Shown piece by piece: positions 11,093 to 63,471 of a DNA stretch of 64,000 bases (position 1 is the stretch's first letter; the number at the start of each line of letters is the position of its first letter). A model generated the notes under the pieces. It worked only from the letters and a program-made list of their open reading frames with translations, searched no databases and was not told where the DNA came from. The stretch lies in NCBI RefSeq assembly GCF_003334765.1, contig NZ_QOWT01000001.1, one strand, 5' to 3'. The position numbers and the translations under genes were made by a program. This stretch comes from Escherichia coli (lineage in GTDB: Bacteria > Pseudomonadota > Gammaproteobacteria > Enterobacterales > Enterobacteriaceae).

Positions 11093-11179
11093 AACACATC
11101 AGATTTCCTGGTGTAACGAATTTTTTAAGTGCTTCTTGCTTAAGCAAGTTTCATCCCGACCCCCTCAGGGTCGGGATTT
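11093..11179 (+). ncRNA. dsrA: DsrA small regulatory RNA
   Basis: Sequence aacacatcagatttcctggtgtaacgaattttttaagtgcttcttgcttaagcaagtttcatcccgaccccctcagggtcgggattt matches remembered DsrA, including its terminator hairpin. Confidence 0.85.
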
Positions 11180-23707: not shown

Positions 23708-24050
23708 GTTTTGTAACCTGTTGACTATGCTTGTTTATTATATCCGATCCCACAGCGTGGGGCATGGATGGGGCAAACTCACTCAATTTCTGGTTTAAAA
23801 TGGATACCTGATCCTGAAAGTTTTCTGCCATCCACGATCCGTAAACGCGATAACATGTTTTGTCTTCGCTTTGCTCCCAGGAAGAGTGAACTCATTCGTT
23901 AGCCTGGGGTTCCTTCTGATCATTATTGTTCCTGCCTTTATCTCTTGCCACGCCAGAGCCCCCTGGATACACATACACCAGGATGAAAACGGTGAGTTGT
24001 GTTCAAACTGTAGTACAATTCTCTCCAGTATGAACAGGAAAGAATATGCT

Positions 24051-24383
24051 ATGAACCCTTATATTTATCTTGGTGGCGCAATACTTGCAGAGGTCATTGG
24101 TACAACCTTAATGAAGTTTTCAGAGGGGTTTACACGGTTATGGCCCTCTGTTGGCACAATTATTTGCTATTGTGCATCATTCTGGTTATTAGCTCAGACG
24201 CTGGCTTATATACCTACAGGGATTGCTTATGCTATCTGGTCAGGCGTCGGTATCGTTCTGATTAGTTTGCTTTCCTGGGGATTTTTTGGTCAACGACTGG
24301 ACCTGCCAGCTATCATAGGCATGATGTTGATTTGTGCCGGTGTGTTAGTCATTAACTTGTTGTCACGAAGTGCACCGCATTAA
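24051..24383 (+). CDS. emrE: SMR-family multidrug efflux transporter EmrE
   Basis: ORF track 23871..24383; internal ATG 24051 gives 110 aa MNPYIYLGGAILAEVIGTTLMKFSEGFTRLWPSVG... with four TM segments. Confidence 0.85.
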   Translation: MNPYIYLGGAILAEVIGTTLMKFSEGFTRLWPSVGTIICYCASFWLLAQTLAYIPTGIAYAIWSGVGIVLISLLSWGFFGQRLDLPAIIGMMLICAGVLVINLLSRSAPH

Positions 24384-24551
24384 AAAATAATTATCCTTGA
24401 GATAACAGGAATCTGATTTGTGCATATTATGGCTAATGTTCGGGGCACCTTTATAATTATGATTGCATTTGCGCGATCATTGCGCCTTTATGCATAATGA
24501 GATCAAGGCACATCAAATAAAATAACGATAGGTCACAACAATGAGGTTTTT

Positions 24552-25103
24552 ATGAAAAAACTTATCGTTTCAAGTGTATTGGCATTCATAACATTTTCTG
24601 CGCAGGCCGCAGCATTTCAGGTCACTAGTAATGAAATAAAAACAGGAGAGCAACTTACAACGTCTCATGTATTTTCTGGATTTGGGTGTGAAGGTGGTAA
24701 TACATCGCCCTCATTAACCTGGTCTGGTGCTCCTGAAGGCACCAAAAGCTTTGCCGTAACTGTGTATGATCCAGATGCTCCTACAGGCAGTGGATGGTGG
24801 CACTGGACTGTTGCTAATATTCCAGCAACTGTAACATATTTGCCCGCTGATGCAGGAAGACGTGATGGTACAAAACTTCCGACTGGTGCTGTTCAAGGCC
24901 GAAATGATTTTGGTTATGCAGGATTTGGTGGAGCATGTCCTCCCAAAGGAGATAAACCCCATCATTACCAGTTTAAAGTATGGGCTCTAAAAACTGATAA
25001 AATTCCTGTGGATTCTAATTCCAGCGGAGCGTTAGTTGGTTATATGCTTAATGCCAATAAAATTGCAACCGCTGAGATAACACCAGTTTATGAGATAAAG
25101 TAG
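24552..25103 (+). CDS. ybcL: periplasmic PEBP/RKIP-family protein YbcL
   Basis: 183 aa ORF with signal peptide and PEBP-like motifs (VYDPDAP..., GDKPHHYQFKVWAL). Confidence 0.8.
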   Translation: MKKLIVSSVLAFITFSAQAAAFQVTSNEIKTGEQLTTSHVFSGFGCEGGNTSPSLTWSGAPEGTKSFAVTVYDPDAPTGSGWWHWTVANIPATVTYLPADAGRRDGTKLPTGAVQGRNDFGYAGFGGACPPKGDKPHHYQFKVWALKTDKIPVDSNSSGALVGYMLNANKIATAEITPVYEIK

Positions 25104-25112
25104 GGTAAGAGT

Positions 25113-25910
25113 ATGCTGGCAAAAGATAAGACTAACCTAAAGATTGAAGAAATACGGATGCATAAACATCATGAGATTCACAGGGTTAAGCCTCTTATGC
25201 CAGCTTTATGTCGTATCCGTCAGGGAAAAAAAGTTATCAATTGGGAGACGCATAGTCTAACTGTTGATAATAATCAGATAATATTATTTCCCTGTGGATA
25301 TGAATTTTATATTGCGAATTATCCAGAAGCAGGTCTTTATCTTGCAGAAATGCTTTATTATCCCATTGATCTAATTGAAAAGTTTCAAAAATTTTATGCG
25401 ATAACTGATCAAATTCGTAACACGACAGGTTTCTGCTTACCTCAGAACCCCGAGTTAATATATTGTTGGGAGCAACTAAAAACATCTATTTCCCGAGGCT
25501 TCTCAACGCAAATTCAGGAACACTTAGCAATGGGCGTTCTACTTTCATTAGGAGCACATCATGTTAATTGTTTACTTTTATCAGATAGTAAACAATCATT
25601 AATAAGTCGTTGTTATAACCTAATGCTATCCGAACCTGGAACAAAATGGACAGCAAACAAGGTAGCGAGATATCTCTACATTTCTGTTTCCACATTGCAT
25701 CGCCGTCTGGCAAGCGAGGGAGTAAGTTTTCAAAGTATATTGGACGACGTGAGGTTAAATAATGCGTTGTCTGCTATACAAACGACAGTAAAACCCATCA
25801 GCGAGATTGCCAGGGAAAATGGTTACAAGTGTCCTTCTCGTTTTACTGAAAGGTTCCATAATCGTTTTAAGATAACACCAAGAGAGCTAAGAAAAGCGTC
25901 CAGAGAGTAA
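25113..25910 (+). CDS. ybcM: AraC-family transcriptional regulator YbcM-like
   Basis: 265 aa ORF with C-terminal AraC-type HTH; very AT-rich. Confidence 0.75.
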
Positions 25911-26066
25911 AAGTATTTTATGAAGGAGCAACAGCATCGATTTTTATTTTGGAAAATAAATACGGCATACTCAACCTATTGGAGTCTGAACAATCCGGTG
26001 ACTTCTGCGCTAATCGGGGACGTTTCTAAGCACATATAATTGATACTATCTTCCTCCATCACAATT

Positions 26067-26591
26067 TCAGAAATGCACGTGTGATTTTTTTGCATCCGGC
26101 GTTTGGACTATGTGGAGCTCAAGAGTGGGAAAGTTACAAGAGGTTGAGGGGATAATTAAAGGGATGCTTATGACATTAGATATCCGGTTAGGTGCGGATA
26201 TCGTTGTTATTAAATCTAGTTGATACGTTAAGATGCAGCTACTGACAAAATAGCCAGGACTCCACAAAACGCCTTTGTCGTAATACCTGACTGCAATATC
26301 TGGTCGATCTCGTCGCAGTAACCTACTCGATACGCCTTTGAGGCTGTTTACCAGACTGGATATCGCCAGTTTGGGAGGATAGTTAATTAACAAATGGACG
26401 TGATCTGGTCCGCCATCCATTTCAACCCGTTCAGCTTCAAAATCAGCACATACATTTGAAAAGTAAGTGCGTAGTTTTTCTGTCGCGTCATGGTCAAAAA
26501 TCTGACGTCGGTATTTAGTAACGAAGACTAGGTGAACATGCTTCAGGAAAACACAATGCCTTCCGCGTCGGATATCGGTTTCTTTTTTCAT
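26067..26591 (-). CDS. tnpA: IS200/IS605-family transposase TnpA (HuH Y1), possibly 3'-altered
   Basis: ORF track 26067..26636; MKKETDIRRGRHCVFLKHVHLVFVTKYRR... with HuH motif HVHLL; C-terminal tail is low-complexity and longer than typical TnpA. Confidence 0.7.
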   Translation of the reverse strand: MKKETDIRRGRHCVFLKHVHLVFVTKYRRQIFDHDATEKLRTYFSNVCADFEAERVEMDGGPDHVHLLINYPPKLAISSLVNSLKGVSSRLLRRDRPDIAVRYYDKGVLWSPGYFVSSCILTYQLDLITTISAPNRISNVISIPLIIPSTSCNFPTLELHIVQTPDAKKSHVHF

Positions 26592-26905
26592 AGGCCAAAG
26601 TATGATTTGGCCCATGAAACGACTACAGGCATTCAAATTCCGGTTAAGACCAGGTGGTCAACAGGAGCGTGAAATGAGGCGCTTCGCAGGCGCATGTCGT
26701 TTCGTTTTCAATCGTGCTCTGGCGCTTCAGAATGAGAATCATGAGGCCGGTAATAAATACATCCCTTACGGGAAAATGGCTTCCTGGTTGGTTGAGTGGA
26801 AAAATGCCACTGAAACGCAATGGCTTAAAGATTCGCCCTCACAGCCATTGCAACAGTCACTGAAAGACCCTGAGCGGGCTTACAAAAACTTCTTCCGGCT
26901 TCGTC
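26067..26905. mobile_element. degenerate IS200/IS605-family insertion sequence (tnpA plus 5' fragment of tnpB)
   Basis: Divergent tnpA / tnpB start codons about 25 bp apart; tnpB homology ends after about 95 codons; exact ends not determined. Confidence 0.6.
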
Positions 26906-26943
26906 ACCACGCTCAAACGGTGTGCTACCTATCGCGGCTATAA
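26614..26943 (+). pseudogene. tnpB: TnpB (OrfB) N-terminal fragment
   Basis: ORF track 26602..26943; MKRLQAFKFRLRPGGQQEREMRRFAGACRFVFNRAL... matches TnpB N-termini for about 95 aa, then an unrelated tail and stop. Confidence 0.7.
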
Positions 26944-27322
26944 AAACAGCTTGTCCATCAGCACGATAGATAAAATAAGGCTGCTTTTTGTCGCCTTCTT
27001 TTTTCCACTCAAACCAGCCATCGGCAAAACAGATTGCCCGACCATGTTGCCAGAGCGGTTTAAACATGTGACTGGTTGCGGCAGTTTCTACGCGGGCGTT
27101 AATCAGCGGCGGTTTATCCCACCATCCGGGAGCATATCCCCAGAAAACCGGATCCAGATGAAGGTGTTCATCACGTTCACTGAGCAGAAGGACTTTGGTT
27201 CCCGGCGCGACGTTGTATCTGCCAATAGGTTCGGGATCGTAGGGAATATCGCGTTCAATATCTTCCGCGAGAAGCGCAAGGTAATCTTCACGCGTTTGGG
27301 ATTGGGCAAAGCGTCCACACAT
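26825..27322 (-). pseudogene. yedK: SOS-response associated peptidase YedK, 3'-truncated and fused to IS sequence
   Basis: 165 aa ORF MCGRFAQSQTREDYLALLAEDIERDIPYDPEP... is shorter than the 222 aa I recall for full-length YedK; its 3' part overlaps the tnpB fragment on the opposite strand. Confidence 0.7.
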
Positions 27323-27430
27323 AGAAACCTCCTGAGGTCACACTGAAAAGAATAGGAGAGGGGGCGGGTTAAATCTATGTGATAGAGAGGCAACGATATT
27401 CCCGCTGTGGGCCACAGCGGGAATGAGGGA

Positions 27431-27664
27431 TTACTTCTGAATTAAATAACGAATGGTCGGCCCGTCTTGCTGAATATCCAGCACCGTATAGCCGTGATTA
27501 CGCGCATCCAGTGGAATATTATTGATCGACTGCGGACAGTCGCTCACCACTTCCAGGATCTCCCCTTTTTTTAACTGCGGCATCGCCTCAAGGGTTGCGA
27601 CTGCCGGATAAGGGCAGGGTTCACCCACCATATCAAGACGGTAATCAGGAACGATATTTTTCAT
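27431..27664 (-). CDS. yedF: TusA-like sulfurtransferase YedF
   Basis: 77 aa ORF with CPxP motif (GEPCPYP). Confidence 0.88.
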   Translation of the reverse strand: MKNIVPDYRLDMVGEPCPYPAVATLEAMPQLKKGEILEVVSDCPQSINNIPLDARNHGYTVLDIQQDGPTIRYLIQK

Positions 27665-44852: not shown

Positions 44853-44928
<76 letters not shown>

Positions 44929-44982
44929 GTTTAAAAGACATCGGCCTCAAGCGGATGTCTGGCTGAAAGGCCTGAAGAATTT

Positions 44983-45056
44983 GGCGCGTTAACAAAGCGG
45001 TTATGTAGCGGATTGCAAATCCGTCTAGTCCGGTTCGACTCCGGAACGCGCCTCCA
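44983..45056 (+). tRNA. cysT: tRNA-Cys (anticodon GCA)
   Basis: ggcgcgttaacaaagcggttatgtagcggattgcaaatccg...cgcgcctcca. Confidence 0.9.
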
Positions 45057-45068
45057 CTTTCTTCCCGA

Positions 45069-45155
45069 GCCCGGATGGTGGAATCGGTAGACACAAGGGA
45101 TTTAAAATCCCTCGGCGTTCGCGCTGTGCGGGTTCAAGTCCCGCTCCGGGTACCA
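45069..45155 (+). tRNA. leuZ: tRNA-Leu (anticodon TAA, long variable arm)
   Basis: gcccggatggtggaatcggtagacacaagggatttaaaatccc...gggttcaagtcccgctccgggtacca. Confidence 0.9.
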
Positions 45156-63358: not shown

Positions 63359-63386
63359 TTCTCCCGATTTCCTCAATTGAAATGAA

Positions 63387-63414
63387 CCCGATGATCTGCG
63401 CATCGGGTTTTTTA
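63387..63414 (+). terminator. Rho-independent terminator after cheW
   Basis: cccgatgatctgcgcatcggg hairpin followed by tttttta. Confidence 0.7.
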
Positions 63415-63444
63415 TTTCAATTTCGCGGCGGGTGGCATCAGCAA

Positions 63445-63471
63445 TAAAGTTTCCCCCCTCCTTGCCGATAA
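63445..63471 (+). promoter_or_regulatory. sigma-28 (FliA) promoter of tar
   Basis: Perfect TAAAGTTT-N11-GCCGATAA about 30 bp upstream of the tar ATG. Confidence 0.8.

Follow-up and report, generated by a model that had tools for sequence, protein, structure and literature searches.

A probable inert relic of IS609 adjoining truncated yedK in Escherichia coli

Introduction

How did a divergent pair of tnpA- and tnpB-like reading frames and the neighboring yedK gene come to be truncated together in Escherichia coli, and does anything at the locus retain the means to move or to act? The locus lies in a stretch of 64,000 nucleotides of contig NZ_QOWT01000001.1 (RefSeq assembly GCF_003334765.1), referred to here as the window. 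It was compared with loci from K-12 (L002), OkiPb01690 (L003), Z1323HEC0475 (L004), ET565 (L005), and ST131 (L007), and with an intact IS609 (L006). The locus is very probably an inert relic of a single insertion of IS609, an IS200/IS605 family element with divergent tnpA and tnpB, trimmed by deletion on both sides (Table 1). It is an ordinary feature, the dead remains of a well-known IS, and over 1,000 genomes already carry its annotation. IS609 itself is listed as a single-copy IS200/IS605 element of K-12 and showed no transposition in mutation-accumulation lines (PMC5009759).

Table 1. Features of the IS609-yedK locus, in window coordinates
Feature	Position	Strand	Basis
IS609-derived DNA (all in the window)	26235..26898	none	blastn to the K-12 copy; the same block matches L003, L005, and L006
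tnpA remnant, 119 codons (residues ~7-124 of the 143 of IS609 TnpA)	26235..26591	-	alignment to WP_000604943; NCBIfam
Read-through tail of the tnpA reading frame, non-IS DNA (ybcM-porin intergenic sequence)	26067..26234	-	no TnpA homology; present in IS-free L004
tnpB stub, codons 1-95 of 402 (HTH_OrfB_IS605 domain and part of the N-terminal lobe)	26614..26898	+	alignment to full IS609 TnpB; NCBIfam; Pfam PF12323
Left junction	26232..26242	none	window, L003, and L004 sequences side by side; in 1,109/5,426 genomes
Right junction, CGG, 1-3 bp microhomology	26896..26898	none	sequence comparison; in 1,111/5,426 genomes
yedK pseudogene, native residues 1-142 of 222	26896..27322	-	alignment to full YedK; NCBIfam positions 1-143/222

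Identity and Setting of the Element

A blastn search of the whole window with the complete 1,748-bp K-12 copy of IS609 returned one significant match, a gap-free block of 664 bp (26235-26898) that is 95.0% identical to IS609 positions 118-781 (E=0) and amounts to 38% of the element. Identity to the copy that RefSeq names IS609 is 95.8%. Across 5,426 complete E. coli genomes, megablast found the block to match IS609 copies at ~95%, including the K-12 copy between ydcL and ydcO; the matched copies are annotated as 'IS200/IS605-like element IS609 family transposase' and 'RNA-guided endonuclease InsQ/TnpB'. By nucleotide homology, the fragment therefore belongs to IS609 by descent. As a functional element it would need both ends with their subterminal hairpins, and neither the left-end nor the right-end sequence occurs anywhere in the 64-kb window when up to three mismatches are allowed. 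Lacking these ends, the relic should be immobile even in trans, given what is established for Y1 transposases. The missing 3' part of tnpB has been deleted rather than moved, and the window holds no second piece of IS609.

In RefSeq genomes 100% identical at the locus, the annotated gene order is fliF-fliE-emrE-ybcL-ybcM-(relic)-yedK'-yedF-yedE-yedD-amyA. The emrE-ybcL-ybcM segment is a low-GC island (35-46% GC, ~23.8-26.6 kb). In K-12, these three genes lie in the DLP12 prophage. Their low-GC segment between fliE and yedK (~23800-26230) suggests a decayed prophage or an island at a variable site. A promoter scan of 25900-27450 gave no sigma-70-like site, and terminator-like hairpins in the same interval number four against 1.5 expected. 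A terminator-like hairpin (26179-26202) adjoins a single copy of GTTGTTATTAAATCTAGTT at 26203-26221; in ET565 the same unit forms a tandem repeat of ~3 copies downstream of ybcM (L005 300-360). Elsewhere in the window, the Rfam matches at gathering level (2667-2756, 11093-11179, 44853-45152, and 63378-63455) correspond to rseX, DsrA, three tRNAs, and C0465, all ordinary E. coli features.

Coding Remnants

The tnpA reading frame (26067..26636, minus strand) matches the NCBIfam model transpos_IS200 with E=3.8e-36, the match being confined to model positions 2-112 of 126. It retains the HuH motif (DHVHLL). Homology to the intact 143-residue IS609 TnpA of L006 ends after ...LWSPGYFVSSC, at residue 124, and the last 55 residues of the reading frame are read-through into non-IS DNA. 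The 19 codons lost from the end include the C-terminal helix GGAPISAIRQYIEQQ, which in the alignment of the intact TnpA coincides with the ...KKYIEEQ / ..YIE(E/Q)Q helix of solved Y1 transposases. In IS608 TnpA, it is this C-terminal helix that carries the nucleophilic tyrosine (Tyr127). By this alignment, the relic TnpA keeps the HuH motif and has lost the helix with the catalytic tyrosine; a functional Y1 HuH transposase has both. The canonical tnpA start is also mutated, from ATG to ATC, with other ATG codons present by chance. The intact IS609 TnpA aligns to the TnpA proteins of ISHp608 (2a6m, 7e-19) and ISDra2 (2xm3).

The tnpB reading frame (26602..26943, plus strand; real start at 26614) comprises exactly 95 codons of IS609 TnpB, with three substitutions against residues 1-95 of the L006 protein, followed by 14 codons of antisense yedK before a stop. 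It matches the NCBIfam model guided_TnpB (E=2.2e-21) over positions 1-92 of 389 only, and its 76.6 bits fall short of the 100-bit cut-off; the sole Pfam domain seen is HTH_OrfB_IS605 (PF12323, E=3.7e-16, residues 1-48). Full-length IS609 TnpB is homologous to ISDra2 TnpB (8h1j, 8bf8) with E=4e-54. Its conserved segments GLDAG, IEDL, and NADVNGA, which we take to hold the acidic residues of RuvC, all lie beyond residue 95. With residues 1-95 of 402, the stub has neither a RuvC-like lobe with its acidic triad nor the zinc finger (TNB), and the region at the tnpB 3' end and right end that would encode the omega RNA is deleted from the window. From what is established about TnpB, the stub would thus have neither nuclease nor guide RNA.

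An Rfam scan of 25-28 kb gave no match at E<=1, and Rfam is a weak detector of the IS609 omega RNA. In the K-12 IS609, used as a control, the only matches were sub-threshold, to HgcC (22 bits, E=0.14) and RAGATH-18. The HgcC-like match (L002 4025-4141) runs from the end of insQ to the right end, where the omega RNA is expected. No Rfam family reliably recognizes this RNA, and its absence from the window rests mainly on the deletion of the sequence.

The preliminary description had called the locus a fossil IS200/IS605 element, and alignment to the full-length element, with its 664-bp match, bears this out and specifies IS609. Its estimate that tnpA and tnpB start ~25 bp apart on opposite strands is close to what is found: the two ATG codons in the window are 22 bp apart (the gap between the annotated genes of canonical IS609 is 7 bp). 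Its suspicion that tnpA was altered, raised by an overlong C-terminus, proved justified, the last 19 codons having been replaced by the 55-residue tail. The TnpB match, put at about 95 codons before unrelated sequence, is exactly that long, and homology to TnpB holds; the tnpB 3' end and omega RNA, described as missing, are absent both at the locus and within the 64-kb window, as judged from the search for IS ends and from blastn.

Empty, Occupied, and Decaying Sites

Related genomes show other states of the locus. Z1323HEC0475 has no IS, and its gene order is ybcM, an intact nmpC/ompC-like porin gene (L004 1479-2561), and yedK. Its empty site reads ...CCAGGCTTAT|CAAACAGGTTGAATTA..., where the yedK stop codon appears as its complement, TCA. 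Reduced to its core, the empty site is TTAT|CAAACAGG, and the occupied sites of OkiPb01690 and ET565 read TTAT|CCGGTGCG...GGATGTCAA|CAAACAGG. ET565 carries the full IS609 (1,747 bp), with a 402-residue TnpB and a right end, as TTAT|CCGGTGCG...GGAGGATGTCAA|CAAACAGG. The yedK stop codon is interrupted by the element, whose right end provides a replacement, so that YedK grows from 222 to 223 residues and ends in ...QPVC. TTAT lies 5' of all three independent IS609 copies (at this locus, in K-12, and in L006), and no target duplication is seen. Insertion next to TTAT without duplication, as seen in OkiPb01690 and ET565 against the empty site, is the known mode of the IS200/IS605 family; since both IS ends are deleted in the window, the target site is read from these comparisons.

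OkiPb01690 has the same insertion as ET565. A 1,222-bp deletion has taken its porin gene except for 38 nt at the 5' end. Also missing are 17 bp within tnpA and, at a GTGGAG microhomology, 100 bp where the 3' end of tnpB, the omega-RNA region, and the right end lie. Reading the additional 17 bp of the K-12 and ET565 tnpA genes as a duplication was rejected: the intact IS609 of L006 has them too, which makes the OkiPb01690 allele the one with a 17-bp deletion. Many long-form copies are themselves in decay. Besides the losses in OkiPb01690, tnpA is frameshifted in ET565 and has an internal stop in K-12 (sites concerned: L003 5800-5816 and 4270-4285, and L005 2546-2662).

Deletion Junctions and Descent of the Relic

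The left side of the relic has the sequence ...ACGTTAA|GATGCAGCTAC|TGACAAAATAGCC. Its first bar marks the porin-deletion junction that OkiPb01690 also has (CGTTAA|GATGCAG), and GATGCAGCTAC (11 nt, 26232-26242), from the 5' end of the nmpC/ompC-like porin gene, is all that is left of that gene. Within it, GCAGCTAC (26235-26242) is an 8-bp microhomology shared with tnpA (...CCTCCGCAGCTACTGGCAAAATAGCC). The 650 bp between the two copies of GCAGCTAC are gone; they held the 3' end of tnpA, the left end of the IS, and AT-rich flank. On the right side, a fusion of tnpB ...AAAAACTTCTTCCGG|AAGCGG... with yedK ...AATCCTTCGG|CTTCGTCACC... gives ...CTTCTTCCGGCTTCGTCACC; the two share CGG as microhomology, or just one C with the OkiPb01690 allele. 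This deletion spans 1,211 bp relative to ET565 and 1,111 bp relative to OkiPb01690, and it removed IS609 positions 782-1748 together with the last 244 bp of yedK (codons 143-222). Because other E. coli genomes have full tnpB abutting full yedK at the locus, one deletion accounts for both truncations.

These comparisons point to the following course of events. The 1,748-bp IS609 entered the yedK stop codon on the 3' side of TTAT without duplication, and the adjacent porin gene was lost in the 1,222-bp deletion, both steps being visible in related genomes. The two trimming deletions are shown by the junction sequences. A 650-bp deletion at GCAGCTAC took the left-end hairpin and the last 19 tnpA codons. 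A deletion of ~1.2 kb at CGG took tnpB codons 96-402, the omega RNA and right-end hairpin, and yedK codons 143-222. Both deletions are probably products of ordinary microhomology-mediated illegitimate recombination.

The shared porin-deletion junction indicates that the window descends from a long-form ancestor. That the relic and the long form stem from the same insertion event, both IS ends having since been lost, is likewise suggested by collinear flanks, common orientation, and this junction. One consideration counts against it. The relic is ~95% identical to the IS609 of OkiPb01690 and ET565 at the very same locus and is no closer to them than to the unrelated copies of K-12 and L006 (95.0-95.8%), whereas the flanks are 97-98% identical. 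A separate insertion of IS609 in the lineage of the window, later trimmed by deletions, would explain this distance, and IS200/IS605 elements do re-use specific TTAT sites. Such an origin nevertheless appears unlikely. It would have to reproduce the same orientation between flanks that are collinear on both sides, and the window keeps the OkiPb01690 porin-deletion junction together with 11 nt of the porin 5' end. Additional divergence is also expected of a neutral relic, and more than half of the differences (17 of 33) cluster within 26505-26668, forming a mosaic between window and ST131 that suggests gene conversion. A single insertion shared with the long form is therefore preferred.

The preliminary description had placed the tnpB break at the truncation point of yedK, and native YedK indeed ends, at residue 142, on the same junction (26896-26898). 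It had further proposed a deletion or rearrangement associated with the IS. In terms of position this is correct; as a product of the transposase it is not upheld, the junctions lying inside genes at microhomologies of 8 bp and 1-3 bp. It is highly improbable that the truncations were made by the machinery of the element, by aberrant TnpA excision or by repair after TnpB/omega-RNA cleavage. In general, TnpB cuts both strands of TAM-flanked targets, and both deletions do touch the element, each with one end inside it. However, no break falls on either IS end, a hairpin, or TTAT, so the transposase is not implicated, and the sequence that TnpB would target (TTAT followed by the bases that border the right end) is found in the empty site and is absent once the site is occupied. 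A third and unrelated microhomology deletion, the 100-bp loss at GTGGAG in OkiPb01690, shows that such deletions are common here. Deletion mediated by TnpA or TnpB was accordingly rejected, the junctions being away from the IS ends and TTAT, and illegitimate recombination at microhomologies is retained as the probable mechanism.

The Truncated yedK Allele

The yedK reading frame continues to 26825 through antisense tnpB, which adds 23 foreign residues to the native part, and the remnant scores 324.6 against an NCBIfam cut-off of 349. It keeps Cys2 and Glu105 and has lost His160 and the 80 C-terminal residues, and is thus not a complete SRAP protein. His160 of YedK is a general acid in abasic-site ring opening, and its mutation slows cross-linking ~10-fold (PMC9436759). 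Judged from these losses, the truncated yedK is most likely a loss-of-function allele. The ST131 remnant also has a premature stop, Q7*. The truncated allele is found in ~1,111 of the 5,426 complete E. coli genomes, ST131 among them.

Population Spread and Mosaic Divergence

Junctions were counted with 121-bp queries centered on each of them against the 5,426 complete E. coli genomes. The right and left deletion junctions occur in 1,111 and 1,109 genomes; for the long form, 1,082 have the junction of right end and yedK and 1,098 that of flank and left end. The near-equal counts of the deletion junctions imply that the two deletions are almost completely linked and form one common haplotype. 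This relic haplotype is old and is present in ~20% of complete E. coli genomes.

The ST131 relic differs from that of the window at 30 positions in 1.4 kb, and its tnpA and tnpB frames are open. The cluster of differences from canonical IS609 occupies 164 bp around both gene starts (26505-26668), and at most of these variant positions the ST131 relic matches the canonical sequence. The mosaic suggests that intact IS609 copies and the relic have undergone gene conversion. Substitutions private to the relic include those at 26245, 26279, 26291, 26320, 26327, 26410, and 26428. In 64 genomes, an 868-bp IS5-family element lies within the relic tnpA at the position corresponding to 26515-26518, with the 4-bp target site duplication TTAG; the window is without it. 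This element (L001 4620-5487) has a programmed frameshift, and the genomes with it include strain 104, several poultry isolates, and ST648.

In the PGAP annotation of both annotated relic genomes (strain 104 and ST131), the tnpB and yedK pieces are incomplete pseudogenes. The tnpA of strain 104, interrupted by the IS5-family element, is likewise called a pseudogene, and that of ST131 an ordinary CDS.

Does the Relic Have a Function?

Several observations could be taken as signs of function. The tnpA- and tnpB-derived frames are still open in both the window and ST131 despite ~2% divergence, which a strictly neutral relic need not show and which counts against inertness; the haplotype is also frequent, and the ST131 tnpA is called as an intact protein by PGAP. 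It is very doubtful that the TnpA remnant has been kept as a dominant-negative protein that poisons intact TnpA dimers and so damps IS609 mobility and, separately, that the yedK truncation is a tolerated or even selected knockout of abasic-site shielding. Co-option in the wider sense, in which the Tyr-less TnpA would pair with intact IS609 TnpA in a dominant-negative manner or the HTH stub of 95 residues would bind DNA as a small regulator, is scarcely credible: the tnpA start has changed from ATG to ATC and the window and ST131 alleles differ in their start codons, an IS sits in tnpA in 64 genomes, 25900-27450 contains no sigma-70-like promoter, the C-terminal tails are arbitrary read-through, and nonsynonymous differences are not depleted (11 nonsynonymous and 7 synonymous in tnpA, 5 and 6 in the stub, counts that mix divergence from before and after inactivation and so say little by themselves). 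An inert relic of IS609 therefore remains the preferred reading.

The significance of the locus is small, and nothing in it should surprise a specialist. It does offer a worked example of IS609 with its empty site, full element, decayed forms, and TTAT targeting. For users of RefSeq, it means that the 179-189-residue 'IS200/IS605 family transposase' of some genomes is a chimeric, Tyr-less pseudogene product and that the accompanying 'helix-turn-helix' protein is the TnpB stub. The roughly one in five complete E. coli genomes with a yedK lacking His160 form a natural comparison set for the bacterial HMCES/SRAP abasic-site pathway.

Comparison with Known Systems

RefSeq/PGAP records of the locus (e.g., NZ_CP103465.1 of ST131 and NZ_CP029164.1) have identical or 98-100% identical sequence and junctions. 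They name tnpB 'helix-turn-helix domain-containing protein, incomplete', yedK 'SOS response-associated peptidase family protein, incomplete', and tnpA 'IS200/IS605 family transposase'. Nothing material differs between these records and the present account, except that in them the parent IS is unnamed and the deletions are undescribed. The closest known element is IS609 (tnpB = insQ), with which the window shares the divergent tnpA/tnpB start region and which is present at full length at the same locus in other strains. Compared with full IS609, the window copy is without the left end, the right end and omega RNA, the catalytic Tyr of TnpA, and the nuclease lobe of TnpB. The structurally characterized IS608 and ISDra2, with their Y1 HuH transposase TnpA and RNA-guided nuclease TnpB, are distant homologues of IS609 and separate elements. 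In both, tnpA and tnpB are co-directional, whereas in IS609 they are divergent.
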